Assembly: GCF_029504745.1 (NCBI RefSeq)
Contig: NZ_JAQFIQ010000046.1
Location: 1 to 18,575 of the forward strand
Direction: 5' to 3'
DNA length: 18,575 bases
Source: Breznakia sp. PF5-3
GTDB taxonomy: Bacteria; Bacillota_I; Bacilli_A; Erysipelotrichales; Erysipelotrichaceae
Each line of letters begins with the position of its first letter. Within the stretch, counting starts at the first letter, position 1. This document shows positions 337-18,575 of the stretch, in pieces. A program made the position numbers and the translations under genes. The notes beneath the pieces are model-generated. The model saw only the letters and a list, made by a program, of their open reading frames with translations. It searched no databases and was not told the origin of the DNA.

Positions 337-372
337 TAATCCAACTTCAAAGAGAATTCTTATATGATTCTA

Positions 373-4500: not shown

Positions 4501-4789
4501 CATAGAATTCCAACACTATATAACTAGTCACATCCCCTGTACGCTTATACTCATTACCTTCCTCACCTGTTTTACAGCGCATATAAGTTTCCAGTGTCCT
4601 ATCCCCTATATCACTTGCAGCTTTATTAAACTTACATGTCCCTATTGTTAGAACATATTGAACCGCATCCAATACTGTTGACTTACCACTTCCATTCTCT
4701 CCTGTAATGAGTGTGTTTTTATAAACCTGAAACTCTTGGTTTACAAAAGTATACCAATTAATCAATTTCACTTTTGTCAATGTCTTCAT
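1547..4789 (-). CDS. jetC: Wadjet JetC (MksF-like) SMC-family ATPase
   Basis: N-terminal Walker A GENGSGKST. C-terminal signature-like GKSGGETQ and Walker B VVLFDEAFNNMD. These are separated by about 800 aa of K/E/L/Q-rich coiled-coil-type sequence. I prefer the ATG at 4789 (MKTLTKVKLINWY) because AGGAG lies 6 nt upstream. The maximal ORF reaches 4834. Confidence 0.9.
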   Translation of the reverse strand: MKTLTKVKLINWYTFVNQEFQVYKNTLITGENGSGKSTVLDAVQYVLTIGTCKFNKAASDIGDRTLETYMRCKTGEEGNEYKRTGDVTSYIVLEFYDEKTKAYQILGVVADLASGGKPWREFFQIVDKSINQVSFIINKKILTKREFKNNLNNNSQQAIFKDTIRDSKRLFSNALGVKEKYFDLVTKALAFKAIDKVYQFIMDFLLKEDFVDIDNLRQSIQHYRRIEEQLKLSQKECETLEPIIEKSKIHGEITNKIEIQNFVKEKIKEKNFVHLISLLEEKEKKLTSKLEQVNANLIQLQQDNELDMNQLNEVNNSMFKNESYRLKEKIQQSFDEVKREKEKKVNAYEILVNEIRGEAAQLKQLRIHQKFVEYVASGNFTSNELQSYILEIIESISIKKEKLEDQVRELINKSEKDTSYFSEKMKEYEALKQNQLIYKPEVHALIELLKEKLFNHYGKHIEVKPLCEYLEVKDETWRNAIEGYLNTQRFDIIVDPEYFGYAMRAYEEYKSKHGIFGVGIVDVAKLKRFNDIDIKGTLAEKVDSKNIYARWYTNMLLRYVMCVDDIGQLRQYRTAITKTVMLYKNYTVRALNPHIYKNPVIGLGAIKIQKKEIEMELEELKPIIEADKKRKQQLSINLNQLKALRSEKLSYRLQLIDEYQSIVSNYNIQEKRLNKITLDDTILSLQEESGKLSERIEVTKQKIYEFHTQKVTIEVELNQLGKDFDNNKRELKIIRERILQYELEHIDATERADRLIMNYEKRFSRNFKKISEEIERKQSEWIYQLNTIATNIAVDMTNYNNVFNVGYENTIEAIQEYIKKYRYLKDIEIVDKIDKARQAKLKSEETFQTSFVSGLNEKIDNAKRDILFLNKNLSKRDFNGETYEFCISPTSKTGFKEYYEIIHTGKDYISDNLLSETLDESQRKIMDELFERLSSTENNADTEKLLTKYTDYRNYLDYDIKITKSNGAFSYFSKTNRGKSGGETQTPFYVIMAASFEQIIKDRNSVENFGCVVLFDEAFNNMDEPRIKEMIKFYNERDIQTFIAVPPSRASTIIPYVNTSLLVIKHEEQSFIEVITDESV

Positions 4790-5390
4790 TGTTAACTCCT
4801 TGTTTATAATTTTGAATTCTTTCTTCAATTTCATTTATTTTATGAATAGGCAATATGTAATTTATTGTTGGATATAAAATCAATCTAGAATCATCATCTC
4901 TTAAATCTCCGATTCGCTCGCAAATATTATATCTCGATAAAAACTGATATAATTCTTTTAATTCTGTTATATTAATTCTTTTATCATATAACCCCGTTGC
5001 TTCAACTTCAGCATGCAATTCTCCCAAAGTAACGTTGATAAATTCTGTATCTTGCAATTCTTGAGACTTTTGAAAATACATTTTTCTCAGTAACAACAAA
5101 ACAACTGAATAAATTTTATTTATATTCAAATGATTATAATTATTCTTATTTATAATGTAAACAACCTGATCAGCTTTGTTTATATAAAAATTGTAATCAA
5201 TCAAAATTAAAAAATTACTGAATAACGATTCATAATCACTGATAAAATAATAATCATTTCTATCTTTTTTTCTCCCACCACATAAATAGTTAACAGATAA
5301 TAATCGATTGAGAATTCTTGAAAAATTATCCCTTTGATAAGTAGACATATTAGAATAAGTCCTAAGAATATGTTCCATTTTATCTTCCAT
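4758..5390 (-). CDS. jetB: Wadjet JetB (MksE-like, DUF4194-type) subunit
   Basis: 210-aa ORF between jetA and jetC, starting 1 nt after the jetA stop and overlapping jetC by 32 nt. AAGGAG lies upstream. The assignment rests mainly on the conserved operon position and size. No catalytic motif is expected. Confidence 0.7.
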   Translation of the reverse strand: MEDKMEHILRTYSNMSTYQRDNFSRILNRLLSVNYLCGGRKKDRNDYYFISDYESLFSNFLILIDYNFYINKADQVVYIINKNNYNHLNINKIYSVVLLLLRKMYFQKSQELQDTEFINVTLGELHAEVEATGLYDKRINITELKELYQFLSRYNICERIGDLRDDDSRLILYPTINYILPIHKINEIEERIQNYKQGVNNEDIDKSEID

Positions 5391-5391
5391 A

Positions 5392-6735
5392 TTATTTTTT
5401 CTCCTTTATTATAAATTCTCTAAACTTGTATTGATTTGTATTTACAAGTGTATTTAATGGTTCTATTTTGTATTTTGATTTTTCGTTATATCCGTATAAC
5501 CATGTTAAAACAAACAGGGATATATCCATTTGTTCCTTAAAATATACGGATCCATTTAAGACTGAATTACCATCTAATCTTTCCAAAATACGCTTCTCAA
5601 TTGATTGCTGAGTATACTTACTGTTTACTTTAAGCCTATTTATTTCTTGCTCACGAATTAAATCATCCAATTTCACTTCTTTTATAGACTCTAAATGCAT
5701 TGGTAACTTTTGCTTTCTAGATGAAAAAATTGAATGTGAGTCTAAAGTTTTATTAACAGACAATTCTACTATATTATTTAAACTTCCATCATATTGTTGC
5801 CCTGATTTGATAATTTCATTTATCTTTCCACCTATATCTTCTTTTACATTAATTAAAAACAGTATTCTGTTCGTTGCCGAAGCAACAAACTTTTCATTCT
5901 TTTTGCTTATTTCATTAATCAAATCTAATATACTTTCAAAAGAATCGATCATATAGTTTGTTTGTTCATCGAAAATATCATATGCTTTTTCATATGTTAT
6001 ATCTTTGCTATCCATTATATTTCTTACTATACAATTAATTTTTTCTTCTGAATTTCTAATTTCACTAATTGCAGCTATTATAGTATTTCTATATTTTAAA
6101 GGATGATCTCGGGTAGTCAAGTTATAAAAAGCTCTATCTACAATCATTAACTGATATTCATTAAGTAATGAATCCAATAACTGATTTAAATCATTTTTCA
6201 TATTATCTCTTAATAATTTTTTAATATATCGTTTAATATTTGTATTTAAATTTTTTAATTTATTCATTAATTCTTTTGTTGTTCTGTAATGAGAGTCAAG
6301 GATCTTATGCCCATTATTTACATCAAATCTAACAAATGAAGAATAAATATTATATACCATACTTGAATATTCAACATCTGCATCTGCATCCAATTGAAAT
6401 AATATGTTCATAATTGATGTTGCATAATCTTCAAAACTTGCATAAATTTGGTAATTATCCCCTTGTTCTTCCGAAATCCACCCACAATCTTTGAGCCTTT
6501 TATAAATATTATCTGCCCTTTCTTTTGGTGTTCCAGAAGCTATTTCATCAGTTTCTATAATATGTGAATTAAAATACTTAGTCAATTCGAATATCACATT
6601 TTCTTTTAAAGAAGCAAAAGCTGAGTCTTCTTTCATATAATCATACAATACAAATAAGCATTCACTAATCATACCTTTGTTAGAATTATTAAAAATATTG
6701 AAAAAATTTATAGGTAATGTCTCAAAAATATTCAT
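5392..6735 (-). CDS. jetA: Wadjet JetA (MksB-like kleisin, DUF3375-type) subunit
   Basis: First gene of the operon. About 447 aa from the ATG at 6735 (MNIFETLPINFF), which is preceded by GGAGGG plus 4 nt. The listed 490-aa ORF starts at a TTG with no SD. The assignment rests on position and size in the jetABCD order. Confidence 0.7.
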   Translation of the reverse strand: MNIFETLPINFFNIFNNSNKGMISECLFVLYDYMKEDSAFASLKENVIFELTKYFNSHIIETDEIASGTPKERADNIYKRLKDCGWISEEQGDNYQIYASFEDYATSIMNILFQLDADADVEYSSMVYNIYSSFVRFDVNNGHKILDSHYRTTKELMNKLKNLNTNIKRYIKKLLRDNMKNDLNQLLDSLLNEYQLMIVDRAFYNLTTRDHPLKYRNTIIAAISEIRNSEEKINCIVRNIMDSKDITYEKAYDIFDEQTNYMIDSFESILDLINEISKKNEKFVASATNRILFLINVKEDIGGKINEIIKSGQQYDGSLNNIVELSVNKTLDSHSIFSSRKQKLPMHLESIKEVKLDDLIREQEINRLKVNSKYTQQSIEKRILERLDGNSVLNGSVYFKEQMDISLFVLTWLYGYNEKSKYKIEPLNTLVNTNQYKFREFIIKEKK

Positions 6736-6778
6736 TTTTCCCTCCACAATATTAAATATATTTCCTCTTATATTTTTA

Positions 6779-6807
6779 ATTATACTATAATATTTAGTAT
6801 AAAATAA
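6779..6807 (-). promoter_or_regulatory. Possible sigma-A type promoter of the jet operon
   Basis: The minus strand reads TTATTT-17 nt-TATAAT, with the -10 box 43 nt upstream of the jetA ATG. The -10 is perfect but the -35 is weak. AT-rich context makes chance matches likely. Confidence 0.25.
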
Positions 6808-6952
6808 CCTTTTCTGATGCTTGGGTAGTATAAAATATCTTGTGTAAACTCTTGGAACTACCAATCCACGAGTAATAGTTAATATAGAAAAAGGGAACCG
6901 TTCCTAGTAGAATTAATTGTGACCAAACAATATTCGAAAGGAAGGTTACCCA

Positions 6953-7050
6953 TGAACAATTTTAACACAGAAATCTACAAGGCACTATCACAAGGTTTAA
7001 GTATTGACCAAATTATTTGCAATGAGCTGCAAGAACAGCTTAATCATTTA
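6953..7050 (+). pseudogene. Possible IS256-family transposase N-terminal stub, truncated by the IS3 insertion
   Basis: The ATG at 6953 is preceded by GAAAGGAAGG. It translates to MNNFNTEIYKALSQGLSIDQIICNELQEQLNHL, resembling the MNNF.TE..KAL... N-termini I recall for clostridial/bacillary IS256-like transposases. The reading frame runs straight into the IS3 terminus at 7051 and does not resume after 8292. Confidence 0.3.
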
Positions 7051-8292
7051 TGGATAGGCTACATGGAATGGCAACACTTTTGTAGACAAATTTTATAAGG
7101 TCATGTTTTGTCTATATTCCACAGAACTTTGATAACCTAAAGTTGAATGCACTCGCTTATTGTTGAACCAATATACGTATGCGGATAATTCTTGTTCCAA
7201 ATTCAGCAATGATGCAAACGTTCTTTCGCGGACGAATTCAGCTTTGATTATTTTGAAATGTGCTTCTGCAACTGCATTGTCCTATGGATTTCCTTTTCTA
7301 CTTAAGGATCTATCAATTCCAAATGTTTCTAATACATTATCGATTAAATGATTATCAAATTCATTACCTCTATCTGTGTGGAATATATCATATTCAAATA
7401 GATTTCCTTTGATGCTTAAAAATGCTTGTTTCACAAGTTTTGCATCTTTATATTTCCCACAACTATAACCTACAATCTCTCGATTATACAAATCGATAAT
7501 TACACAAATGTAATTCCATTGGTTATTCACCCTAACGTACGTTAAATCACTTACTATGACTTCCTTTGGCATTCTCTCATCAAATTCTCGATTTACTTTA
7601 TTTTCTATGTTTGCTTTATTAACAGTTGTCTTATGTACTTTATATTTCTTCACTGTATATACTGATACAAGCCCATTTTGATGCATAATCCGTGCAATTC
7701 TTCTTGATATACAAATGCCTTGTTTCGCTAATAAATGCTTGATTCCCCATGTTCCATAGACTTTCTGGTTATCATCAAATATTCTAACTACAATATCATT
7801 GTAACTATCAACCTTTGTTACCACATCTTGGTATTTATAATATCCAGACCTCGAAATATTTAATGCCTTACACATTTTCACTACCGAATATTTGTGTGCA
7901 TTTGCTCTGATTACTTTTACTTAGGACGTAATCAGAGCTGCTTGCTTCTAGGTGCCCTTGGGGCATAAAATATCGTTCTCCATTTCAAGCTGTTTATTTC
8001 TTTTTCTTAAAGCAATTAATTCTTTTTCTTCTGGAGTAAGGCTATCTTTTGTTTTGAATGATCCTGCTGTATCCGCCTGTTTAATCCATTTTGTTAATGC
8101 TGAAGGGGTTAAATCATATTCTCTAATAATTTCGGGCTTGGGTTTTCCACTTTGGTATAAGTTTACCCTTTACTGTTTAAATTCACTTGTAAATACTTTA
8201 CGTTTTCTTCTTGTTGTCATTTTCTTTTCCTCGCTCTTCTATTTTACCATGACAACCTTATCTTTTCTGTTTACTTTATTGTAGCCTATCCA
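7051..8292 (-). mobile_element. IS3-family insertion sequence, 1242 bp, inactivated
   Basis: Terminal inverted repeats TGGATAGGCTACA (7051-7063) and TGTAGCCTATCCA (8280-8292), with the TG...CA ends typical of IS3. It contains OrfA-like HTH and OrfB-like DDE coding sequence. No target-site duplication is seen (flanks ...TTTA and ATTAC...). Confidence 0.85.
7093..8220 (-). pseudogene. IS3-family transposase (OrfA HTH + OrfB rve/DDE) with four in-frame nonsense codons
   Basis: One continuous frame of 375 codons: MTTRRKRKVFTSEFKQ*RVNLYQSGKPKPEIIREYDLTPSALTKWIKQ...ENDILCPKGT*KQAALITS*VKVIRANAHKYSVVKMCKALNISRSGYY...SDLTYV...HTDRGNEF...SRKGNP*DNAVAEAHFK...YWFNNKRVHSTLGYQSSVEYRQNMTL*. The stops are at 8170-8172 (TAA), 7948-7950 (TAG), 7921-7923 (TAA) and 7282-7284 (TAG, where GNPYDNA is expected). 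Confidence 0.85.
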
Positions 8293-8297
8293 ATTAC
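8267..8297. repeat. 31-bp direct repeat copy 2 (IS3 terminus plus 5 flanking bases)
   Basis: CTGTTTACTTTATTGTAGCCTATCCAATTAC has one mismatch to 306-336. The identity continues 5 bp (ATTAC) beyond the IS end at 8292. Confidence 0.8.
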
Positions 8298-8489
8298 AGC
8301 AAAAGTAATCGTAATACCCTTTATACAACCACATATAAACCATTTTAACTGCCATTTGTTTTTAGTCAATATAAAACCATTGGTAGTTTTCTTTTACCCT
8401 TACATACCTTTTATTGTCAGTATTAATACTCCTCTCTACAAAGTCTATTATGTATCTTATACTTGGTTTATGAAAGTGAGGAATATAAT

Positions 8490-8735
8490 ATGACAACTGA
8501 TATTAAAACTTCTCTGATAAATGATTTATGTATTTCAATCCAAGACACAATACTAATTGGGATAGAGCAGCAACCTAATGATTTTATTTATCTAATAAAT
8601 ACGATTAATCTACTAACAGCATTTCAAAATAACGGTATTAAAATTGATACTACTATCTTCACAGATATTTACATGGATAACCTTTATAGGGAGATACGAA
8701 CATTTCTATTGAAACCCTACAAAATTGAAGAATAG
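8490..8735 (+). CDS. Hypothetical small protein (81 aa)
   Basis: The only plausible plus-strand gene. The ATG at 8490 (MTTDIKTSLINDL...) is preceded by AGTGAGGA 8 nt upstream. I see no recognisable motif. It lies between the IS3 element and the convergent terminator hairpin. Confidence 0.4.
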   Translation: MTTDIKTSLINDLCISIQDTILIGIEQQPNDFIYLINTINLLTAFQNNGIKIDTTIFTDIYMDNLYREIRTFLLKPYKIEE

Positions 8736-8875
8736 TGTATACAAACTTATAGGCAATTTCGATTGTGACCAACCTTTTCCTTACGACATAATTGCTACCC
8801 TAATTCAAATATACACTTATTTTATTGCAGTTATATACTTTTCTATAGCAATATGTAAAACTAAATAGCACATAA

Positions 8876-8913
8876 AAACAGTACTAACTTTGTCTATTTT
8901 GTTAGTACTGTTT
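8876..8913 (-). terminator. Rho-independent terminator closing the minus-strand toxin/immunity array (possibly bidirectional)
   Basis: Perfect 13-bp inverted repeat AAACAGTACTAAC / GTTAGTACTGTTT with a 12-nt loop. On the minus strand the stem runs into TTTTTAT. It lies 126 nt downstream of the stop at 9040 and 140 nt downstream of the plus-strand ORF ending at 8735. Confidence 0.6.
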
Positions 8914-9039
8914 CTTATGTATTGCTTGTATTTAGTTAGTAGGGTTATTAGTATCGTGTTGTATTACAGGTTATTACTATTACGTTTATACCTCCTATGC
9001 ATTAACACTATACTTCCTATCTCCGCGCATGTACTGATT

Positions 9040-9492
9040 TTAAATATTTCTCGCTTCTGGTATACTATCTCTAAAATTCTGAATGAAATCCTTTTGATTT
9101 GAAAATACTTTAACAAATGAAGAGTCTTCTGAAATTATTTCAATGATACTCAAAGAAGGAAAGTATTTTTCTGTTTTATAAGTTGGAAGTTGATTTTTCA
9201 ATACATCTTCTAATGAAGTAGTTAAAGGAAACGCTATGATTATTCCCCAAATAAATTGAAGGGTTTCATTTTGAATTAATTCGTTAAAATCTTTTCCTGT
9301 TAACCATATGTAATCATGTCTTTTATTTTCCAATTCCTCAGTTGGATAATAATTACATTCATACTGTGTAATCAACCAATTATATTGACTTGTATTTATT
9401 TTACATGCTTCAACTATAACATTTAAATCAGTGTAATATATTTTTGAATTATTATAATAAATGTCTCTTCCTTGTAAAATTGCTCCATCCAT
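9040..9492 (-). CDS. Putative cytoplasmic immunity protein of the orphan toxin tip at 9504-10061
   Basis: 150-aa ORF starting 11 nt after the toxin stop, with AAGGAGA 6 nt upstream of the ATG. No signal peptide. The assignment is by position immediately 3' of a polymorphic-toxin C-terminal domain. Confidence 0.6.
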   Translation of the reverse strand: MDGAILQGRDIYYNNSKIYYTDLNVIVEACKINTSQYNWLITQYECNYYPTEELENKRHDYIWLTGKDFNELIQNETLQFIWGIIIAFPLTTSLEDVLKNQLPTYKTEKYFPSLSIIEIISEDSSFVKVFSNQKDFIQNFRDSIPEARNI

Positions 9493-9503
9493 TCTTATTC
9501 TCC

Positions 9504-10061
9504 TTATTTTCTAACTGGTGTTCCATTAATCCATTCCCAATAATGTTCATGTGGGAAGGTATGTGTACCAGAACCATTTCCATGTAAGAAATCAATATCC
9601 TTAATCATATTACCATTACTATCATAAAATCTTCTTTGCCACAATTCACCATTCACATACAAATCTTGGCTAGAATTTGGTGTAGAAGTTTTTGGTAAAT
9701 CCCCACTTCTACCATTTACATTTTTATGATTTGACATCTTATCTGATTGGCTACCCCATTTATCACCCGAACCCTATCCATTATTTATTGGTAGTCCCAT
9801 AAGTGCGAAAGAACCAGTGCTTATTCCTACACTTGTTAAAAATAAGATTTCATCAAAGTTTGTTATGTCTTCTCCTGCTATTATTTTAGCACCCAGTGCT
9901 ATTTGAGTTGCTTGTGCTGTTATTGCTGCATTTTGTGCCGCTGTAACTCCTGCTGGAGTAATTGTTAGCATACCTCCTCCAGCTAATCTAACTCCTCCTA
10001 TTGCGAGATTATAAAATATCCTCCTGCAGTTGTTATCAATCTGTATGAATTTTAATATACT
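9504..10061 (-). pseudogene. Orphan Rhs C-terminal toxin tip interrupted by an in-frame TAG
   Basis: It starts with a short Rhs core-end homology (SILKFIQIDNN, 10023-10061, compare SIGNFIQIDNNYAG at 18530-18575). Next comes an Ala/Gly-rich hydrophobic segment, then ...LPINNG*GSGDKWG... with TAG at 9774-9776. It ends in a His-rich tail: LYVNGELWQRRFYDSNGNMIKDIDFLHGNGSGTHTFPHEHYWEWINGTPVRK. There is no start codon at the homology boundary. Confidence 0.65.
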
Positions 10062-10082
10062 TAATCTATAAATAGATCTTAA

Positions 10083-11102
10083 CTATTTACTAAAATATTC
10101 AGATATCTTAATATCGTTAATTTCTTTTCCATCTTCTGAGATTTCATATAATTCCTTTTCAGAATAAAATTTAATCTCTTTATTAACATTATAAATTGCA
10201 TAAAGCACTTCTGTTTTAACTGATGATGAAATATCTAATCCATCCTTATTATATAACTGCTTTAATTGTTCATAAATAAACTTTGATGTCTCATAATCAT
10301 TTATCGAACTCTCATCAGTTCTAACATTTGGTATGTATGCATTCAATATTCTAGTTTCTTCTTTTAAAATCTCATTTCCTTTTTTGGATTCATTCAAAGT
10401 TTTTGTAAAAACCGATAACTTATCTCTGTACATTTCCAAATCATAATAATATATATTCCTAATATACTGAACCCATTGATTTAACTCAGAAAAGAAAATT
10501 GATTCATAATCATCAAACTTATATTTTTTTATTGCTTCTTCTAATTTTGACTTAGGCTCATATAACTTAATTAGTGACTCTTTTATAGCTACTAAATCAA
10601 ATTTTTCTGATTTATTATTATAAAATATTTCTATTTCAACTTTACTTAAATCATACTGTTCTTTTTTTGCGTACTTCCATGACTCATCAAAATCCATTAA
10701 TCCTATATTATTATATTTTACAGGTTTCCCATTTTTCAAATTAAAAAGTTCTATATTTTCTTTCTCTAAAGACACTTTCTTACATTCATTTTTATTATTT
10801 TCACAAAAACTAATTATTATTTTATCAATCTTATAATATGTTGTTCCTTTTATTACTATTTCAAAATTGCTTAATGATTGGTCATATTGATTGTAGAATA
10901 CATATTTTATATCGAAAATTTCTCCACTTGAAATCAATTCTGGGGATTTATTGTAAAATCTTTCAATTTGTTTTTCTTCATAGTCTGTCATTTTATCAAT
11001 GTTTATTTCACTTTTCTTATCTGTAACAAAATTAACCAGTGAAACACTAAGAATTATTACAGATACGATTAATATACTTACTAATAGTGCCTTTTTTTTC
11101 AT
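10083..11102 (-). CDS. Membrane-anchored extracytoplasmic protein, paralog A (putative immunity protein)
   Basis: 339 aa with an N-terminal MKKKALLVSILIVSVIILSVSLVNFV anchor and GAGGAG 6 nt upstream. It is clearly paralogous to 11648-12679 (for example ERFYNKSPELISSGEIFDIKYVFYNQYD versus EVFYDKSPNLISYGENFDVKYVFYNVYD). It lies downstream of a toxin-tip fragment. Confidence 0.65.
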   Translation of the reverse strand: MKKKALLVSILIVSVIILSVSLVNFVTDKKSEINIDKMTDYEEKQIERFYNKSPELISSGEIFDIKYVFYNQYDQSLSNFEIVIKGTTYYKIDKIIISFCENNKNECKKVSLEKENIELFNLKNGKPVKYNNIGLMDFDESWKYAKKEQYDLSKVEIEIFYNNKSEKFDLVAIKESLIKLYEPKSKLEEAIKKYKFDDYESIFFSELNQWVQYIRNIYYYDLEMYRDKLSVFTKTLNESKKGNEILKEETRILNAYIPNVRTDESSINDYETSKFIYEQLKQLYNKDGLDISSSVKTEVLYAIYNVNKEIKFYSEKELYEISEDGKEINDIKISEYFSK

Positions 11103-11345
11103 TTCTTTCTCCTCGCATAATAATTTTAAAAATATGAATTGCTTATTTTTTGTGTGCTGATATTAATCTTAGTTTTTACTATTCAAACATTTATTATGAG
11201 CATTGACTTAAAGCATTTAACAAAACCTGTAAACTCCCTGCATATGAGTATTCGTCTTTTATTTCGATAACTATTTCCTTTATAAATAGTCTTTTTTTGT
11301 AAATGGTTATTTTAAATTTTCTCTAGTTGATCCATTTCCAAAAAA

Positions 11346-11591
11346 TTATACTATTGCTACATATTTTCCAATTTGCTCGTCTTTACTTGAATCTCTTGCA
11401 TAACTGATAAAATTTGTATTTCCATAATAGCTATTCTTTGCTGAATGATATTTCCTTACTGCTACCATTATCATTGAATTCACGCTACTCCATAAAGGAT
11501 CTCTTTCTTGATGTACAGGTGAATCCCCTTTTCTAACATTAATAATCCATGTACTTTGTTTACGAATACTTAACCCTGCATTATCAGTTAT
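11346..11591 (-). pseudogene. 5'-truncated orphan toxin-tip fragment, paralog of 12694-12900
   Basis: 81 open codons with no start, preceded by ATG-AAC-TAA: ITDNAGLSIRKQSTWIINVRKGDSPVHQERDPLWSSVNSMIMVAVRKYHSAKNSYYGNTNFISYARDSSKDEQIGKYVAIV*. By eye it aligns with ...AGKILD(K)ELLTKNVRNDDPSLYSAVDDLWNSTDGLVTYAIRLYYDSKNSLFGFNYLSYKNHNSAKDKLVKYYNAVI*. Confidence 0.5.
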
Positions 11592-11647
11592 TTAGTTCAT
11601 AATCTATCATTAGCGCTAACCCTTCTTTGATAGTATTATTCTATCAT

Positions 11648-12679
11648 TCATTTTTTAAAATATTCATTAATGTTTTCATCCCATTCTTCTCCATTGACAA
11701 TAGAATTCAGTTTTCCTGCATTATACAATTTCATACTATCATTACATTTATTAATTACGTGTATCAATTTAGATTTAACTGATGAAGATAAATAATCAGT
11801 TTTTTCATAATACAATTTTTTTAAATTCCTATATATTTCATTAGCCGTTTCTACATTCTCAATTTCTGTATCTCCGTATGATGGCCAAAAAGCATTTGGT
11901 ATAATAGTATTGTCTGATAAAATTTCTTTTTTATATTTCGATTCTACTATTGTTGTAGTGAAATCGGTTAATTCTTTCAAATATAATGAACTATCAAAAT
12001 AATATAGATTATGTAAATATTCACTCCATTCATTAATACCTTTATTATACATCTTTCCATTTTCTTTAGAATATGAACCAACTACCTCATATATAGTTTT
12101 TGAAGGTTTGTATAAATTAATCATTTCATTTTTATTAAATTTTAAATTCAATTTTTCTACCAAACCATCATAATAGATTTCAACTTCAACCGATTCTATA
12201 TTAATAGTTTTATTTTTTCGTTTTGAATATTCAAAATTATTATCAACATCGCTAAAACTGAAGCTATTATATCTTATAGGTACTTTTTTATTGTAATCAA
12301 ACAGTCTGATTTGTGAATTTTCTACATCTCTTGATATACAATTGTTTGAAGTGTCATATTCACAAAATTTTAATTTTATTTTCTCAATATCTATAAATTT
12401 ATCCCCTTTCATTACGACGTCAAATGAACTTGTCATGGGGTCATAAACATTATAAAATACATATTTCACATCAAAATTTTCTCCATAAGAAATCAGATTA
12501 GGAGATTTATCATAAAAAACTTCTATATTCTTCTTTTCAATATTACTCATCATAGAGTCATCTATACTTTTTGAGGTGCTATTTATCCACAAATTTACAC
12601 CTGCAAATATAACTATTGCAAGAAGCACTATTATAAATAGTACTTCTTTTCTCCCAAAATTTAATTTCTTTTTTCTCAT
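11648..12679 (-). CDS. Membrane-anchored extracytoplasmic protein, paralog B (putative immunity protein)
   Basis: 343 aa with an N-terminal anchor LFIIVLLAIVIFAGVNLW. It starts 14 nt after the stop of the toxin tip at 12694, with GGAGGA upstream. Paralog of 10083-11102. Confidence 0.65.
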   Translation of the reverse strand: MRKKKLNFGRKEVLFIIVLLAIVIFAGVNLWINSTSKSIDDSMMSNIEKKNIEVFYDKSPNLISYGENFDVKYVFYNVYDPMTSSFDVVMKGDKFIDIEKIKLKFCEYDTSNNCISRDVENSQIRLFDYNKKVPIRYNSFSFSDVDNNFEYSKRKNKTINIESVEVEIYYDGLVEKLNLKFNKNEMINLYKPSKTIYEVVGSYSKENGKMYNKGINEWSEYLHNLYYFDSSLYLKELTDFTTTIVESKYKKEILSDNTIIPNAFWPSYGDTEIENVETANEIYRNLKKLYYEKTDYLSSSVKSKLIHVINKCNDSMKLYNAGKLNSIVNGEEWDENINEYFKK

Positions 12680-12693
12680 AAATCCTCCATTAT

Positions 12694-13175
12694 TTATATA
12701 ACAGCATTATAATATTTAACTAATTTATCCTTAGCTGAATTATGATTTTTATAGGATAAATAATTAAACCCAAAAAGACTATTTTTTGAATCATAATATA
12801 ATCTTATTGCATATGTTACTAATCCATCCGTGCTATTCCAAAGGTCATCAACCGCACTATATAATGATGGATCATCATTTCTCACATTCTTTGTTAACAA
12901 TTCTTTAATCTAATATTTTTCCCGCCTTGATCTGTAGCAATTTTATACACTGAGTCAAAAGAAAAAGAGGAAAGTTTAATTTTTCTTCGAATGCCACCTT
13001 TGATAAATGAGCCCATTTCCTAGCAAAATTTTCTGCCCATAATTTCCCATCCCTATCTACGTACTTATAAGGGTAGGATAAGGTGTAGTTATACCGATTC
13101 TGTGTTCCTACATCTTCTTTCTCTCCTGCATAGTTGTTATCTATCTGTATGAAGTTTCCTATACTTGGATTATAA
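12694..13175 (-). pseudogene. Orphan Rhs C-terminal toxin tip with a frameshift
   Basis: 13044-13175 is near-identical to the main-gene core end at 18444-18575 (YNPSIGNFIQIDNNYAGEKEDVGTQNRYNYTLSYPYKYVDRDG). The tip follows: KLWAENFARKWAHLSKVAFEEKLNFPLFLLTQCIKLLQIKAGKILD*. The frame breaks around 12903-12910 (GATTAAAG), and removing one T restores ...ILDKELLTKNVRNDD..., as supported by the paralog at 11346-11591. There is no start codon. Confidence 0.65.
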
Positions 13176-13278
13176 GTGAATAATAGAAATAGATTTATTT
13201 CATTAATCCTTTATTTTATAGCATTAAAAATGCTGTGATTATTTTTATACTATTTATTACCCAAAATAAGTCTATATT

Positions 13279-14235
13279 TTAACATCCATCCCCTGACAAA
13301 CTTATATATCTACAAATTTCCACATCATTATTATTTTCAAAAATCACCATATTTGTTTCTCTAATAAAATCCATATTGTTTATTGGAATCCTCCCTTTAT
13401 AGGTGTCAACAATATCAAGTGTATCAGGATTAATAATATTTATTTTACCAAGTACCTCATATTTATCAATAACCTTAAAATTATTTAATGATATAATTTT
13501 TATTTCCCCATCTATCTCATACATTAAATAATTACTTTTTTCATTTATTACAAAATCAATTGGCGTTGTTCTATCTATTGTTTTATCAAAATAAACTATT
13601 TTCATATTATTTCTAATTGATATATGTTTTTCCCCAGAAATAACTAGGTATTTCAAAGACTTGTAATACTTGAAAATGTCATCATTAGAACTAAAAACAT
13701 CTAATTCTACTAAATCATTTTGTGCCAAATAAAATGATTTAGTCATAAATTTTTTTGACTTCATTGGCAATTCAGTTGTTACAATAAAATAAGTCTTTTC
13801 CGTATTCAATCTACTGATTACATGTAGTTTTGAATCAAGTGATTGTTCCATAATTTTTTCTTCATCGCAGTTCCATTGTATTAATTTATTTTTATGCTTT
13901 TCACCCTCAAAATAAGAAAATTGAAGATACATTTTATTTGATACCATTGTCATAACATCCATTGTTATGCTATCTTCCATTAATTCTAATATTTTTTCTA
14001 CAGAATCATTAATAAAGTCTATTTTTAATACATAATGATTATTGAAGAATACAAATAAACAATTATCAGCTTCAGAAAAACACCCTGCAGAAGGATAATC
14101 TATTCTTAATTCATATATTTTTTCATTGTTTGAATTATAAACCCTTACATACTTGGCAACATAAAGGGCGTATAGCCCTTTACTATATGATGTTGCCAAT
14201 AAAGAAGTCCTCCTATATTTTTTAATAAGTTTCAT
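13279..14235 (-). CDS. Hypothetical cytoplasmic protein (318 aa), repetitive beta-strand-like sequence; possible immunity/accessory protein
   Basis: Long intact ORF. AAGGAG lies 7 nt upstream of the second ATG (MKLIKKYRR). No signal peptide and no motif I recognise. It sits behind the putative lipoprotein gene in the cassette headed by the Rhs tip at 14811-15078. Confidence 0.55.
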   Translation of the reverse strand: MKLIKKYRRTSLLATSYSKGLYALYVAKYVRVYNSNNEKIYELRIDYPSAGCFSEADNCLFVFFNNHYVLKIDFINDSVEKILELMEDSITMDVMTMVSNKMYLQFSYFEGEKHKNKLIQWNCDEEKIMEQSLDSKLHVISRLNTEKTYFIVTTELPMKSKKFMTKSFYLAQNDLVELDVFSSNDDIFKYYKSLKYLVISGEKHISIRNNMKIVYFDKTIDRTTPIDFVINEKSNYLMYEIDGEIKIISLNNFKVIDKYEVLGKINIINPDTLDIVDTYKGRIPINNMDFIRETNMVIFENNNDVEICRYISLSGDGC

Positions 14236-14284
14236 TTGCATTCTCCTTTACTACCTTTATTTTTTTAATATACTATTAATATAT

Positions 14285-14806
14285 TTAATCACTTATTAGA
14301 TTATATTTAATATTATTTTCGTCGAATTTTTGATTCTCAAATAATTGCATACTCCAAACAATATAATGCCTATTTTCTCCATCAATTTTTAGTGTGATTG
14401 ACTTATACTGGAAAAATCTCACATCTGCCTCATATTCGACTGTTCCTTTACCAACTATTACTCCAAAATATTGGCTTTCTTTTGATTCTCCTGGAACTTT
14501 AAAATATTTAATGTCATCATTAAGAATGTATCCGCCCTTCACATATCCTCCTTTAGAAATTTTTGACAAATAGAAAATATGATATGTATCTCTTGTATCT
14601 TCAACTATAGCTATATAAAAGTTTTTATATTTTATTTTAAGCTTTGTGTTTTTATATTCTGGTCTAATCCCATCAGAAGGAGGAGTATCATCTGAGTCAA
14701 AATACTTCTCAATTATATTTACTGAATTTTCATTATCTTCAAAGATAACACACCTTATGCATCCAAAGATGATAATCAAAGACAAAAAAGCAATTATTTT
14801 TTTCAT
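14285..14806 (-). CDS. Putative secreted protein or lipoprotein (173 aa)
   Basis: MKKIIAFLSLIIIFGCIRC has a signal-peptide shape with a lipobox-like IFGC. AAAGGA lies 8 nt upstream. The ATG lies 4 nt after the frame-corrected stop of the toxin-less Rhs tip. Confidence 0.6.
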   Translation of the reverse strand: MKKIIAFLSLIIIFGCIRCVIFEDNENSVNIIEKYFDSDDTPPSDGIRPEYKNTKLKIKYKNFYIAIVEDTRDTYHIFYLSKISKGGYVKGGYILNDDIKYFKVPGESKESQYFGVIVGKGTVEYEADVRFFQYKSITLKIDGENRHYIVWSMQLFENQKFDENNIKYNLISD

Positions 14807-14810
14807 TTTT

Positions 14811-15078
14811 TACATCCTTTCAATTAAAGAGTTAACCACTTGCTTTTGCTGATTTGCTTTCTTTGCATTGGCTGTGGCTTTTTTTGGACATTGCATTTAC
14901 ACCAGATAATAGTGATAATCTAAGCTTCGGTTTCTTTGCCTTATTCCCATCCCTATCTACATACTTATAAGAGCTAGATAAGATGTAGTTATATCTGTTT
15001 TGTGTTGCAATATCTTCCTTCCCATCAGCATAGTTATTATCAATCTATATGAAGTTTCCTATACTTGGATTATAATAA
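14811..15078 (-). pseudogene. Orphan Rhs core-end plus tip linker, lacking a toxin domain, with a nonsense codon and a homopolymer frameshift
   Basis: 14871-15078 is homologous to 18385-18575 (roughly four-fifths identical by eye). It reads NYYNPSIGNFI*IDNNYADGKEDIATQNRYNYILSSSYKYVDRDGNKAKKPKLRLSLLSGVNAMSKK..., with TAG at 15045-15047. The T run at 14879-14885 is 7 long versus 6 at 18390-18395 in the main gene. After correction only about 20 more codons follow before the stop. Confidence 0.6.
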
Positions 15079-15246
15079 TTAAAAAGTAGTAGACTATTTT
15101 TAATTATTATTTCAAAATTCTAATTTACATTCATATAGTCCAGTTGACTCCACACAATCACCAATTTTTCTATACTAATTGTAAAATCTCAATAATTATC
15201 TTTTACTTTACAATCAGAATATCCATATTATTTTCTTTCGTTATTT

Positions 15247-15603
15247 TTATACTTCCTCATTCCTTTGTATAAGCTTTCTTTTGCTAAAATTCAAATATGT
15301 TATTGTAAGAGCTGGCAAAGCTATTATAAAATTATCAAAATTTCTATTTGCTATCAACACTATCATATTTGCTATTGTTATTATCCATAAAGGGACAAGC
15401 AAAAAATATGCTGTTTTCTGCTTCCATGATGCTGTGTTGTTGAAACTCCCTAATTCAGTTAACAGATAAAAAACACCTAGTAAAAGTATGGTATTTCCAA
15501 TTGAAAAAGCAAGAACTTTTATAATTTCAATTATTCCTATTGGGTTACAATATATTACACTAATTCCTAATAATAATATATACAATCCTATTATTTTTAT
15601 CAT
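15247..15603 (-). CDS. Small polytopic membrane protein (3-4 TM), putative immunity to a membrane-acting toxin
   Basis: 118 aa from the ATG at 15603 (MIKIIGLYILLLG...), with GGAGGA 7 nt upstream. There are hydrophobic stretches IKIIGLYILLLGISVIY, VLAFSIGNTILLLGVFYLL, AYFLLVPLWIITIANMIVLIA and FIIALPALTITYL. The start is 1 nt after the stop of the toxin remnant. Confidence 0.65.
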   Translation of the reverse strand: MIKIIGLYILLLGISVIYCNPIGIIEIIKVLAFSIGNTILLLGVFYLLTELGSFNNTASWKQKTAYFLLVPLWIITIANMIVLIANRNFDNFIIALPALTITYLNFSKRKLIQRNEEV

Positions 15604-15604
15604 C

Positions 15605-15688
15605 TTATATTCCTCCAATTAACACTATTTTTCCAACTGCACCTAGTCCAATTCCAGTCTTCCAAACTGCTTCAATTGTTGTATAACT
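15605..15688 (-). pseudogene. Remnant of a toxin C-terminus ending in a glycine-zipper-like hydrophobic segment
   Basis: 27 open codons with no start: SFDFSYTTIEAVWKTGIGLGAVGKIVLIGGI*. It is tightly abutted to the membrane-protein gene in the usual toxin-immunity arrangement. It is too short for a family assignment. Confidence 0.3.
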
Positions 15689-15769
15689 AAAATCAAATGA
15701 TCAACCCACATCAACACCTAATCATATAAATCCCCCTAGATAAATAGTCAAAAGGTGATAATGACAGTG

Positions 15770-15804
15770 ATATTGGCACTTTCCTACAGAAAAGTGCCCA
15801 ATAT
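15770..15804 (-). repeat. Cassette-boundary hairpin, copy B
   Basis: Plus strand ATATTGGCAC-TTTCCTACAGAAAA-GTGCCCAATAT (one bulged base). It lies 10 nt after the stop of the immunity ORF 15815-16273, and the spacer begins TTAATT as in copy A. Confidence 0.6.
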
Positions 15805-15814
15805 TTAATTATTC

Positions 15815-16273
15815 TTACATCCCATCATCATAAGGGTTTCTAGTTAAAATTTCTGCTATCTCTTTTTTCCCCATTTGATAATATACTTCATCAATAGATG
15901 ATAAGATTTCTAGTCTTTTTTCAAAAGACCATCTTCTCCAGTCACCAGAAAAATCTTTTACTATATATACTGGTGGTGTAGACAACCTAAATGCAATATC
16001 CCAAAAAATAGAAAAACACAATTCTGATAATGTATATGTCTTATTATCCTTATGCAGTTCTCCACAATCTCCAATACCAAGTTTATGGTAACCTGCTTCA
16101 TTTGAATAGATAATAACAAAAGGACCAAATTTATGCTTAGTTATTTGAAAATAATTTGTAAACATATAAGTTTCTTTTAAGTCATTTAATAATTCCTTTT
16201 TATATTTACTTTTATTTAATTCAGACTTTACAAAAACTTCCAATTCCTCTATATTAAATAGTTTGTCTTTCAT
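15815..16273 (-). CDS. Putative immunity protein for the TNT-like (NADase) orphan toxin
   Basis: 152-aa intact ORF. GGGAGGA lies 9 nt upstream, and the start is 17 nt after the toxin-remnant stop. Cytoplasmic. Assigned by position only. Confidence 0.65.
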   Translation of the reverse strand: MKDKLFNIEELEVFVKSELNKSKYKKELLNDLKETYMFTNYFQITKHKFGPFVIIYSNEAGYHKLGIGDCGELHKDNKTYTLSELCFSIFWDIAFRLSTPPVYIVKDFSGDWRRWSFEKRLEILSSIDEVYYQMGKKEIAEILTRNPYDDGM

Positions 16274-16290
16274 TTCTTTATTCCTCCCAC

Positions 16291-16494
16291 TTAGTAACCT
16301 AAATAATTATTGTCTAAATACCATTGAATAGGCTTTGGTAGGACATATTGTAGTCCGCCACCAGGTGACCTGGACTGTAACGTTACTGATTTTTCACTTC
16401 CTGGTACAGCACCATTATTTGGTGGATAATTCATACTTCCATCTTTATTATCCAACTTGTGTTCCCCGACCCCTGTCCAAAAAATTGATTTCAT
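16291..16494 (-). pseudogene. Internally deleted TNT-domain (NAD+ glycohydrolase-type) toxin remnant
   Basis: ...DGSMNYPPNNGAVPGSEKSVTLQ joined directly to SRSPGGGLQYVLPKPIQWYLDNNYLGY*. YPPN(D/N)G...G.e...L is the start of the TNT domain and (q)PGGG.QY.L......L...GYL is its end, so roughly 90-100 residues of catalytic core are missing. The listed ORF start (16557) lies across hairpin C and is not credible. Confidence 0.6.
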
Positions 16495-16501
16495 AATATA
16501 C

Positions 16502-16539
16502 AAAATTAGACACTTCTCTATTAAAAAGTGCCTAATTTT
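16502..16539 (-). repeat. Cassette-boundary hairpin, copy C
   Basis: Plus strand AAAATTAGACAC-TTCTCTATTAAAAA-GTGCCTAATTTT (12-bp arms, one mismatch). It lies 7 nt after the stop of the immunity ORF 16547-16885. Confidence 0.55.
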
Positions 16540-16546
16540 GTATAAA

Positions 16547-16885
16547 TTAAATGCCAAAATGAATTATATATTTTTTTTCTTTTATGGCTTCTTCAATTAG
16601 TTCTATTAGTTTTTTCACTTCACTTCTATTCTCATCTTTTATTACAACATTTAAGAATTCTAAAAGTGATTTTGGTGGAATAAGTGTTACTCCATAACGT
16701 GCCAACCCTTCATTAGGCCTATTTAAGTTATGCCAAAACGTCGGCATTTTTTTCAGGTTGGAAACCCATTCATTAACAAAATCATCTGAGATTTTTACAT
16801 AATTATATTTATCTTTATCCGTAAAACTATAATCATACTCTAATTCTAAATGATCAATTATTGCAAACTCATTATATGGTCCCAT
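16547..16885 (-). CDS. Putative immunity protein (112 aa) of the orphan toxin fragment at 16858-17121
   Basis: Intact ORF with AAGGAG 7 nt upstream of the ATG. It overlaps the end of the toxin-fragment frame by 28 nt. Cytoplasmic and acidic/basic mixed, with no motif I can name. Confidence 0.65.
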   Translation of the reverse strand: MGPYNEFAIIDHLELEYDYSFTDKDKYNYVKISDDFVNEWVSNLKKMPTFWHNLNRPNEGLARYGVTLIPPKSLLEFLNVVIKDENRSEVKKLIELIEEAIKEKKYIIHFGI

Positions 16886-17121
16886 AATTTATCTCCTTCT
16901 ATAAATCCATCAACTTTTGACTTTGTAGCTCCCTTCAAGTTTTTAGAAAATTCTACTGCTTTATTCAAATAATTTTGCTTACTCGTTGCTCCTACTTCTG
17001 ATCCGTGTTTAGCATAGTGCTTATCAAGTGAAGTTTGAGGACTATCATGACTACCTTTATCCCAATTCTTCTCTGCAGTATATTCACTACTCTCCGAACC
17101 CTGTACAAGAGAACCTAATTT
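16858..17121 (-). pseudogene. 5'-truncated orphan toxin fragment, no start codon
   Basis: 87 open codons bounded upstream by a TAG (17122-17124): KLGSLVQGSESSEYTAEKNWDKGSHDSPQTSLDKHYAKHGSEVGATSKQNYLNKAVEFSKNLKGATKSKVDGFIEGDKLWDHIMSLQ*. The LDKHY.KHG.E.G...YL..A..F helix pair looks like the opening of small nuclease-type polymorphic toxin domains, but this is a weak recollection. No ATG, GTG or TTG is usable, and there is no Rhs-core homology upstream. Confidence 0.45.
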
Positions 17122-17133
17122 CTAACTACATTG

Positions 17134-17169
17134 ATATTGGACACCTCTCTATAGAAAAGTGTCCAATAT
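17134..17169 (-). repeat. Cassette-boundary hairpin, copy A
   Basis: Plus strand ATATTGGACAC-CTCTCTATAGAAAA-GTGTCCAATAT, with perfect 11-bp arms and a 14-nt loop. It lies 10 nt after the stop of the immunity ORF 17180-17689, and the spacer begins TTAATT. Confidence 0.65.
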
Positions 17170-17179
17170 TTAATTGCGT

Positions 17180-17689
17180 CTACATTATATCAACAAATAA
17201 ACCTAATTCTTCAATTTTTTTTATACTATTCTTTTTTAAATTATCACATACACAATACATATAGTAATCATAGCCAAATTGAATTTTAAATTTATTATTA
17301 ATATCTGTAAATTCACACCATATTAATTCTCTTAAAACTAGAGTGGCTAATATTAGTGCTTCATCTAAATCCAAAATCATTTCATTTTTTGCTTTTTTAA
17401 ATATTTTTTCTGTTTTTGAATAAGGCATATCAAATGTTTTTTTCTTGATTTCTTCAAAAGAAAAATACTTTTCCATCTTTTTTACAATGATATTCTTAGA
17501 ATTAAAATTTTTAAAAATAATACTAATCGAATCCAAATATTTTTTTTCCACTCTCAAATACATCTCTAAACTTAATTTAGTTCCATTAAATTCTTTTCCA
17601 ATTTCTCCTACTGAAGTCCAATCATCTACAGAATATGCTCCATTTTCTACCCTATATTGAGAATTATATTTTGTTATTCTATATTTCAT
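17180..17689 (-). CDS. Putative cognate immunity protein of the main Rhs toxin tip
   Basis: 169 aa from the ATG at 17689 (MKYRITKYNSQY...), with AAGGA 8 nt upstream, 19 nt after the toxin stop at 17709. The longer listed start at 17719 overlaps the toxin gene and lacks an SD. Confidence 0.7.
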   Translation of the reverse strand: MKYRITKYNSQYRVENGAYSVDDWTSVGEIGKEFNGTKLSLEMYLRVEKKYLDSISIIFKNFNSKNIIVKKMEKYFSFEEIKKKTFDMPYSKTEKIFKKAKNEMILDLDEALILATLVLRELIWCEFTDINNKFKIQFGYDYYMYCVCDNLKKNSIKKIEELGLFVDIM

Positions 17690-17708
17690 TTTTTTGTCCT
17701 TTCTCACT

Positions 17709-18575
17709 TTATGGTGCAATCCAATTCAAGTTAGCATCATATGTCCCCATTCGAGTGGATTTACTTCCTAGATTTTTAATTGAATCAGCCATCTTCCAAA
17801 CCCCTCCACTATGTGCATCTACATCTGGGGTAATATATCTATTACCTTTTCGAAATACTTTTTGACCATGTGAATATTGGTTAGTATCTTTGTATCCTAG
17901 TTTATTTGCTGCCTCTGTGGCTTCTTTATTGGTCATAGGAGTCTTATTCGAACCCTTATTTTTATCTTTGTCTTTATTATTAGGATCCCCTGGATCAGAA
18001 GCAGTATTTGATGTGCTAGATGTTTTTACTTTATCCTTCTTTTTCGCATCTGCTTGCTCTTGCTTGTACCTGTTAATTTCATGATATTGTTGGCTATGTG
18101 GTGGGTACAATCCATCCCATTCTTTCCAATACCCTTTCCCAACGTTTACTCCTCCTCGATCACACATCTTCTTCCAAGCATTTGCAACTTCATTTCCTAA
18201 CCCTACAAATCCATCTACTGCATAATCAAATAAGCCTAATGCTCCTGCTGCCAAAATTGCAGCTAATCCTGCTAATATTCTTCCTAAGGTATCAATGATT
18301 GGTGGTAATTGACCTAATACCTCTACATATCCAAGAGTTGGCTTAGGAGCTGGATTGTTTGTTTTCTTTTTTGTTGTATTAGCTGCGGCTTTTTTGGCCA
18401 TTGCATTTGTACCAGATAATAGTGATGATCCAAGCTTCGGTTTCTTTGCCTTATTCCCATCCCTATCCACATACTTATAAGGGTTAGATAAGGTGTAGTT
18501 ATACCGATTCTGTGTTCCTACATCTTCCTTCTCTCCTGCATAGTTGTTATCTATCTGTATGAAGTTTCCTATACT
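17709..18575 (-). CDS. Rhs/WapA-type YD-repeat polymorphic toxin, 3' end only (core end plus C-terminal toxin tip); partial, continues past the right edge
   Basis: The frame is open to the window edge (867 nt, in frame with the stop at 17709). It reads SIGNFIQIDNNYAGEKEDVGTQNRYNYTLSNPYKYVDRDGNK, matching the RHS repeat-associated core end (RYY.P.IGRFI..D.Y.G....N.Y.Y...NP..Y.D..G). The variable tip follows: a hydrophobic LGRILAGLAAILAAGALGLF segment, a K/D/N-rich linker and a terminal module ...KLGYKDTNQYSHGQKVFRKGNRYITPDVDAHSGGVWKMADSIKNLGSKSTRMGTYDANLNWIAP*. Confidence 0.85.
   Translation of the reverse strand, partial: SIGNFIQIDNNYAGEKEDVGTQNRYNYTLSNPYKYVDRDGNKAKKPKLGSSLLSGTNAMAKKAAANTTKKKTNNPAPKPTLGYVEVLGQLPPIIDTLGRILAGLAAILAAGALGLFDYAVDGFVGLGNEVANAWKKMCDRGGVNVGKGYWKEWDGLYPPHSQQYHEINRYKQEQADAKKKDKVKTSSTSNTASDPGDPNNKDKDKNKGSNKTPMTNKEATEAANKLGYKDTNQYSHGQKVFRKGNRYITPDVDAHSGGVWKMADSIKNLGSKSTRMGTYDANLNWIAP

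Follow-up and report, generated by a model that had tools for sequence, protein, structure and literature searches.

Stable 3' or intercistronic stem-loops without a U tract protect the messenger RNA upstream of them, as in the malE-malF repetitive extragenic palindrome (REP) of E. coli, the RNase III sites of phage T7 and the cry1Aa 3' retroregulator of B. thuringiensis. An RNase III processing site is a double-stranded RNA stem of about two helical turns that undergoes cleavage in vivo. The orphan arrays of Rhs and contact-dependent inhibition (CDI) loci, for example in Salmonella, are said to consist of displaced toxin-immunity modules with core-end homology downstream of the main rhs gene. 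The present analysis concerns a hairpin that recurs behind three immunity genes of an Rhs toxin/immunity array in Breznakia sp. PF5-3 (contig NZ_JAQFIQ010000046.1, positions 1 to 18,575); the window hereafter is this whole stretch of 18,575 nt. The copies had been noticed in an earlier examination of the letters alone (the sequence-only reading). We favour, with a probability of about one half, an intercistronic RNA stem-loop in the 3' untranslated region (UTR) of the immunity cistron, which by analogy would form or protect the 3' end of the immunity message.

Every gene relevant to the array lies on the minus strand, and the order from the right is the end of the Rhs gene, the immunity gene imm169, hairpin A, the orphan toxin fragment fragA, the immunity gene imm112 and hairpin C; leftwards the array continues with a TNT-like toxin fragment, an Imm63-like immunity gene, hairpin B, a glycine-zipper pair, older orphan modules and a terminator.

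The hairpins resemble the malE-malF REP and bacterial interspersed mosaic elements (BIMEs), the T7 sites and the cry1Aa retroregulator in being stable sense-strand stem-loops placed directly after a cistron. Like these mRNA-stabilising stem-loops they lack a U tract and lie inside a polycistronic unit; a stabilising effect here would be by analogy. Unlike the T7 sites, the Breznakia stems are perfect, 16-22 bp long and free of internal loops. Apparently unlike REP elements, the copies seem undispersed as far as scanned (the window, reference genomes and Rhs loci) and are tied to toxin/immunity junctions. A position shortly after a stop codon is shared with intrinsic terminators, and copies of the hairpin C type also have the succession of A-run, stem and U-run; hairpins A and B and the copy in a related array, L095, differ from terminators in their U content, and the array owns a canonical terminator elsewhere (8871-8916). 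The left half of the window follows the core-end pattern of Rhs/CDI orphan arrays, whereas the hairpin-bearing modules keep a linker motif of about 15-20 nt instead of the core end and carry a hairpin at their 3' side. On the features tested, the element is outside the Rfam, attC and miniature inverted-repeat transposable element (MITE) families and appears to be outside the REP family too.

In Bacteroidales, rAID-1 loci are arrays of orphan immunity genes with toxin remnants, a repeated intergenic motif and a conserved XerD-family recombinase, and they occur independently of a toxin gene (10.1101/471110). The Breznakia array likewise has a repetitive intergenic motif between its immunity genes, here the hairpin with a leader and linker motif. 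It differs from rAID-1 in being headed by an Rhs gene, in its Gram-positive host and in having no recombinase in the window.

Hairpins of the window

The three hairpins are as follows.

17134-17169, minus strand: hairpin A, a 16-bp stem with a UAUA tetraloop, 10 nt past the stop codon of imm169
16497-16544, minus strand: hairpin C, a 22-bp stem with an AAUA tetraloop; 16-bp core at 16502-16539
15770-15804, minus strand: hairpin B, 15 bp and one bulged G with a UGUA tetraloop, 10 nt past the stop codon of the Imm63-like gene

The sequence-only reading had located three copies of a conserved hairpin 7-10 nt behind consecutive immunity genes, and this was borne out. All three are exact pattern matches and constitute one repeat family (D6), 76-83% identical over 29 nt in a repeat search. 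The distances to the stop codons of open reading frames (ORFs) 17180-17719, 15815-16273 and 16547-16885 are 10 (A), 10 (B) and 7 nt (C), and hairpin C, with its 22-bp stem and 16-bp core, lies 2-7 nt past the imm112 stop; A and B share a TTAATT spacer. The three immunity genes are mutually unrelated. A degenerate core pattern, GRCACTTTTYNNTAGRRARGTG, gave three exact matches, all at the A, B and C sites on the minus strand, with 0.02 expected from shuffles. Among local folds of both strands of the 18.6-kb window the hairpins rank first, fourth and 11th in stability, and among minus-strand folds first, third and seventh. Hairpin A scores 71.7 bits with the covariance model. Neither the core pattern nor covariance models found a further copy in the window; this includes the left half of the array, which, as had been proposed, shows core-end homology (repeat families D1 and D3) and lacks the hairpin.

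The 14-nt loop of the original description was replaced by a longer helix on RNA folding. In coding-strand RNA the segment UUUUC/U pairs with GAGAG, GGAAA or GAGAA via G-U wobbles, giving a stem of 15-22 bp closed by a tetraloop. The compensatory change between A and C proposed earlier is real: a G-C pair becomes A-U at alignment columns 13/38, and a second double change (U-A to A-U) is found at columns 9/42.

The stems are AT-rich and unusually long for terminators. The statement that no U tract follows them held for A and B, with two U in the first 8 nt past the stem (also 2/8 in L095), and less strictly for C, since C-type copies have 5/8, interrupted by other bases; in hairpin C an A4 run precedes and a U4 run follows the G+C-containing core. 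A terminator scan of both strands of the window flagged none of the three. With two U in 8 nt, the A-type copies A, B and L095 are not ordinary terminators, while the A-run/stem/U-run layout of the C-type copies may allow weak termination.

The inner 3' arm of the hairpin (for example 17140-17163, minus strand) is purine-rich and Shine-Dalgarno-like (GAGAGGUG; GAGGAGUG in the related array L086), and CACUUUUCUA, the 5' arm, looks like the 3' tail of 16S rRNA; both similarities may be coincidental. A sequestered ribosome-binding site was considered and rejected, as a start codon stands at no consistent distance in A, B and C. A promoter in the spacer was also rejected: with 81 promoter-like sites against 73 expected, there is no enrichment.

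Copies in related arrays

Further copies were reached by tracing homologues of the immunity proteins into other Breznakia-type arrays. Besides the three of the window there are five that are intact or nearly so and three that have decayed, 11 in total.

L086 6033-6082: intact, after an imm112 paralogue (82% identical)
L086 7721-7769: intact or nearly so, after a 185-amino-acid gene
L095/L096 1425-1468: intact, 10 nt after an imm169 homologue
L101 725-774: intact, A-type, after an imm112 homologue
L102 1245-1290: C-type, one mismatch
L087 (two copies) and L086 (one copy): decayed

Within the Rhs loci and reference genomes scanned, all 11 copies lie at toxin/immunity cassette junctions of Rhs arrays, in keeping with the proposed link to such cassettes. 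Conserved pairing in homologous loci was confirmed, 90.5% of stem cells being paired over the 11 copies; double-sided changes occur in 7 of the 16 pairs. None of 500 shuffles attained the observed values, and slid controls reached 38-52%. The L086 6033-6082 copy has three stem substitutions, each with pairing kept. In L095 the neighbouring immunity gene is 75.8% identical in DNA and the hairpin is identical at 32 of 36 positions; a C-G pair turned into U-A and the loss of 1 nt from each arm at matching places account for the four differences. The 5' arm begins 10 nt past the stop codon in A, B and L095 and 7 nt past it in C.

The scan of the PF5-3 genome itself covered the 18.6-kb window. Of 185,579 reference genomes, among them B. 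blatticola and B. pachnodae, none matched a strict pattern, nor did any JGI metagenome contig or viral contig. More than 70 other Rhs loci (about 0.7 Mb), which had been fetched via the conserved core end and include those of B. blatticola, B. pachnodae and other Erysipelotrichaceae, were searched with covariance models and yielded no copy. An nhmmer sequence profile gave no significant match in about 1.1 Mb of Rhs loci. A gapped A-type pattern gave two matches in metagenomes, which were rejected as chance hits (both inside unrelated coding DNA and unscored by the covariance model); the otherwise negative result of this pattern is weakened by the failure of the metagenome collection to return the known JGI copy, L096. 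No Rfam family matched in the window, the sole match being a chance snoRNA (E 3.1).

Two further sites may be remnants. At L004 1590-1645 the 3' arm is followed by the 5' arm, an order that is swapped although pairing would still be possible (blastn E 0.017), and at L006 12300-12340 the 3' arm stands alone, followed by a degenerate linker motif. Both rest on position and short matches and are statistically insecure; as the nhmmer profile gave nothing significant, they are treated as suggestive.

Strand asymmetry of folding

As RNA, the sense strand folds more stably than the antisense strand. The energies are -22.7 versus -15.9 kcal/mol for hairpin A (z score -5.3), -16.0 versus -14.8 kcal/mol for B, -26.2 versus -16.9 kcal/mol for C (z score -8.7), -21.1 versus -13.6 kcal/mol for the L095 copy and -16.8 versus -9.4 kcal/mol for an L086 copy. 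In the five well-folded copies counted (A, B and C of the window and two from L086) the sense strand has 14 G-U pairs and one A-C pair. The antisense strand is left without a closed loop because each sense G-U turns into A-C there. With DNA parameters both strands fold weakly and about equally, for example -6.6 and -5.8 kcal/mol for the L086 copy. From the G-U bias and these weak, equal DNA folds it follows that the accumulated substitutions keep a sense-strand RNA helix and not a DNA hairpin. Among the roles suggested by the sequence-only reading, the strand-specific G-U pairing and the covariation seen in homologous loci speak most strongly for one at the RNA level (stability or processing).

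Proposed action as RNA

The hairpin would form on the polycistronic minus-strand transcript of the array. During transcription the 15-22 bp stem and its tetraloop would fold 7-10 nt past the immunity stop codon. The hairpin could then define a 3' end, by weak termination (in the U-flanked C type) or by endonucleolytic processing; alternatively it could block 3'-to-5' exonucleases. With its 3' end set or protected in one of these ways, the upstream immunity message would outlive the dead toxin fragment that follows it. The whole junction, about 100 nt long, would be inherited and exchanged together with the toxin-domain/immunity cassettes, and such travel would account for related hairpins behind unrelated immunity genes.

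The distribution of the copies also bears on a different explanation, namely that the hairpin is a relic: a vestigial terminator or 3' flank of a once-terminal rhs-immunity operon, spread by duplication and gene conversion and now without function. Decay or loss at roughly half of the junctions would be expected of a relic, the C-type copies and the L086 copy behind the 185-amino-acid gene keep the A-run/stem/U-run layout typical of a bidirectional terminator, and the whole junction block is conserved rather than the stem alone. We nevertheless consider a relic quite unlikely. Next to a gene whose DNA identity has fallen to 76%, double changes and matched indels have kept the pairing. Long perfect palindromes, although unstable in DNA, have been retained here in several lineages, and the G-U bias is strand-specific.

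Junction anatomy

A junction consists of the stop codon, the hairpin, a leader and a (K/Q)GS linker motif within about 100 nt. The corresponding features are listed below.

17088-17133, minus strand: leader behind hairpin A, CAATGTAGTTAGAAATTAGG...TTGTACAGGGTTCGGAGAG, with the (K/Q)GS linker motif at its end
16460-16496, minus strand: leader behind hairpin C, GTATATTATGAAATCAATTTTTTGGACAGGGGTCGGGGAA, also containing the linker motif
17942-17956, minus strand: linker motif AGGGTTCGAATAAGA, coding KGSNK, an exact match in the main toxin gene 9 nt ahead of Ntox21
17942-17956, 17088-17102 and 16464-16476, minus strand: AGGGTTCGG linker motif sites of the window
L086 1616, 2434, 6101, 6893, 7782 and 8428; L087 9043 and 9688; L005 3909: AGGGTTCGG linker motif sites of other loci

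The leader after hairpin A is about 80% identical to L087 8975-9057 (blastn E 4e-13) and to L095 1469-1510, and the entire block behind the stop codon at C is 86% identical to L086 6032-6118. The motif ACAGGGKTCGGRG is found about 25-30 nt beyond hairpins A and C, preceded by the leader (GAAATTA...TTGG). The same block of leader and motif stands behind hairpins in L086, L087, L095 and L101, and it also occurs at hairpin-free junctions such as L087 9663-9701 and L086 6873-6910. Downstream of hairpin B no recognisable motif was found, and the sequence there has no significant homology with that behind A or C. The AGGGTTCGG motif, coding (K/Q)GS, opens about 15 orphan modules in Breznakia arrays.

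An orphan Ntox21 module of L086 aligns with the main toxin from the motif into the domain, and in L087 the corresponding linker of the main toxin also carries the motif. The motif was also considered as a vestige of the Rhs core end (GATAGGGATGGG); this was rejected because the exact motif sits at the Ntox21 linker of the main gene and the homology runs on into the domain. The sequence-only reading had described the segments beyond the hairpins as 5'-truncated toxin fragments without core homology. Behind A and C core homology is indeed missing, but the fragments begin with the conserved leader and linker motif, and they are toxin-domain-only modules that start at the (K/Q)GS linker, not random truncations. 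The suggestion that the hairpin defines the truncation point was not upheld, as modules start at the leader and linker motif at hairpin-free junctions also. The start of a cassette is fixed by linker homology and not by the hairpin. About half of the junctions carry a hairpin and several copies are decayed or half-deleted, so the hairpin is not an obligatory boundary signal. The orphans of the array fall into two classes: the old are attached through the core end, the newer through the linker, and the hairpin occurs only in the latter.

Cassette order and DNA-level explanations

In the window the order is Ntox21, imm169, hairpin, fragA, imm112, hairpin, TNT; in L086 and L101 it is fragA, imm112, hairpin, Ntox21 fragment. 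Beyond the imm169 hairpin the partner is fragA in the window, a Colicin D module in L095 and a third toxin in L087, and beyond the imm112 hairpin it is TNT or Ntox21. One immunity family is followed by a C-type hairpin at four loci and, in L101, by one of the A type. With cassette order, downstream partner and hairpin subtype all varying between arrays, the cassettes have evidently been reshuffled at the hairpin-bearing junction. Breznakia Rhs toxins appear to be exchanged at two levels, as whole C-terminal regions joined at the core end and as toxin domains alone joined at the (K/Q)GS linker.

Such reshuffling would also be expected if the element were a cassette boundary acting at the DNA level, where the palindrome extrudes on the lagging-strand template or stalls replication, and the hairpin and linker motif provide short homologies for cassette insertion, swap and deletion. 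The differing cassette order, the changing partner behind the same hairpin and the occurrence of both hairpin types with one immunity family are in line with this, and the possible L004 and L006 remnants, with an arm deleted or swapped, resemble palindrome-mediated deletions. The folding strand is G-rich and, from its GC skew, probably the lagging-strand template. The recombination or deletion hotspot of the earlier proposal is nevertheless the weaker reading because the DNA strands fold weakly and about equally; G-U-type substitutions have also accumulated. Linker-motif junctions without a hairpin show that cassettes join without it, homology is limited to short, diverged stretches (29-36 nt, 76-89%), and no recombinase gene accompanies the array, the window holding only pieces of an IS3 transposase. 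A boundary of this kind is judged unlikely.

In a more elaborate form, hairpin, leader and linker motif together would be a dedicated exchange system for toxin-domain/immunity mini-cassettes, which we regard as decidedly improbable. The replaceable unit would be flanked by the linker motif of the main gene on one side and by the hairpin that follows its immunity gene on the other. By analogy with silent pilin copies, which have a conserved 3' repeat, copying could bring silent cassettes into the expression site, and the hairpin would be the 3' signal for recombination or for pausing of replication.

An integron-type attC site or another site-specific recombination site marking mobile cassettes is extremely improbable. 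The one-directional array of gene and hairpin units is integron-like, with a hairpin-forming site at the cassette 3' end and strand-specific folding, and rAID-1 immunity arrays are known to contain repetitive sequences between their genes (10.1101/471110). Unlike attC sites, however, the element has no RYYYAAC...GTTRRRY core sites in attC order: the arms read ATTRGRCAC...GTGYCYAAT, the order of the elements is reversed and the crossover G/C is missing. The stems are perfect and lack extrahelical bases, the length is 36-48 nt as against 57-141 nt for attC, and Rfam gave no match. Pfam found no integrase or Xer-type recombinase among the ORFs of the window, past whose edge the main rhs gene runs. 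Resemblance of the C-type flank TGTATATTATG to a dif/Xer site was rejected because the left arm is mismatched and the bases belong to the extended stem. Terminal repeats of a MITE or insertion sequence (IS) were rejected as well, as no copy has a target-site duplication or flanking direct repeat and the flanks are conserved 3' UTR and leader.

A protein-binding inverted repeat, either a DNA operator or a site for an RNA-binding protein, could regulate cassette expression and would explain why the arms ATTRGRCAC / GTGYCYAAT are conserved between A and C types past the needs of pairing. The half-sites are 14 bp apart, however, with the intervening bases co-varying as a helix; Pfam scans of the window ORFs show no regulator gene in the array, and a position after stop codons rather than before promoters, where promoter-like sites are not enriched, is ill-suited to an operator. 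This explanation is very unlikely.

Several observations weigh against the RNA stem-loop that we prefer. The leader is about as conserved as the hairpin, and the arm sequence (ATTRGRCAC) is conserved beyond what pairing demands, so the conservation could come from recent exchange of whole junctions and not from selection on RNA. The sense strand is the G-rich strand by GC skew and hence likely the lagging-strand template, on which a single-stranded DNA hairpin could form too. All copies come from one narrow clade, and the covariation counts include shared descent. Three copies are decayed, two possible remnants are short of one arm and about half of the homologous junctions have no hairpin; the element is dispensable.

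Other features of the window

The genes and other features of the array are as follows.

17709-18575, minus strand: 3' end of the main Rhs gene, in the order core end (...YKYVDRDGNK), N-terminal part of the C-terminal (CT) region of about 190 amino acids, linker, Ntox21 domain
17180-17689, minus strand: imm169, immunity gene of the main Ntox21 toxin, 169 amino acids (ORF 17180-17719; homologues P0058-P0063)
16862-17121, minus strand: fragA, orphan toxin-domain fragment (HYAKHGSEVGA...), truncated at both ends
16547-16885, minus strand: imm112, immunity gene, 112 amino acids (homologues P0050-P0057)
16291-16494, minus strand: orphan TNT-like toxin fragment with an internal deletion; PF14021 match restricted to model positions 61-85
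15815-16273, minus strand: Imm63-like immunity gene, 152 amino acids
14880-15075, 12980-13175 and 10028-10071, minus strand: older orphans with Rhs core-end homology, repeat families D1 and D3
8871-8916, minus strand: canonical intrinsic terminator, a 13-bp stem followed by UUUUU, which closes the whole array

A Pfam scan of the main toxin ORF placed Ntox21 at residues 222-286; the linker is of low complexity. The counterparts of fragA are longer (L087 9690-9983 and L086 5390-5676). Relative to these, its 3' end (16862-16900, minus strand) shows a deletion between two AGGAG repeats, which joins ...FIEG to the ribosome-binding site of the 112-amino-acid immunity gene. In the TNT-like fragment the domain start (YPPNNGAVPGSE) and end (GGGLQYVLP) are kept and the middle is gone. 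Left of hairpin B lie a glycine-zipper fragment and a membrane immunity protein. At the start of the three older orphans, Rhs core-end homology covers up to about 190 nt; none of them has the hairpin. In this older part, paralogous genes at 10083-11102 and 11648-12679 (minus strand) encode 339 and 343 amino acids with a signal-anchor-like N-terminus; they form repeat D2 (72% identity over 101 nt) and have no Pfam match. A strong 46-nt palindrome at 14153-14198 (-21.9 kcal/mol on either strand), within the 5' part of a 320-amino-acid ORF, is also kept in the homologous L086 gene (L086 2665-2720).

The distal flank of the array (8640-9045, minus strand), terminator included, is 92% identical to B. 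blatticola L007 10767-11006, where it stands behind the single toxin-immunity pair of that Rhs locus. This match indicates that the whole array grew between the rhs core and a fixed downstream flank. L095 has the distal flank twice, and one of the two contains a (CAACA)n microsatellite.

The Pfam content of the window ORFs comprises Wadjet, IS3 transposase, Ntox21, TNT, Imm63 and DUF2691. A complete Wadjet anti-plasmid system, the jetABCD operon, adjoins the Rhs array at 373-6864 on the minus strand (JetA 5392-6864, JetB (DUF4194) 4758-5390, JetC 1547-4834 and JetD 373-1560). A 31-nt direct repeat (306-336 and 8267-8297, 97% identical) encloses this operon and the IS3-family transposase pieces (7282-7881, minus strand), and may mark the ends of an inserted island; in B. 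blatticola the Rhs flank runs on into mgsA instead.

Significance

Though modest, the finding is genuine: the 3' UTR hairpin is structurally conserved and restricted to one lineage, a narrow insect-gut clade, which limits its general reach. Should the hairpin protect or delimit immunity transcripts, it would reveal how orphan immunity genes stay expressed within long arrays of dead toxin fragments, a question that bears on interbacterial competition and has received little attention in Gram-positive bacteria. The two-level exchange of modules may matter more than the hairpin itself, as it offers a concrete and testable picture of how the toxin repertoire diversifies.

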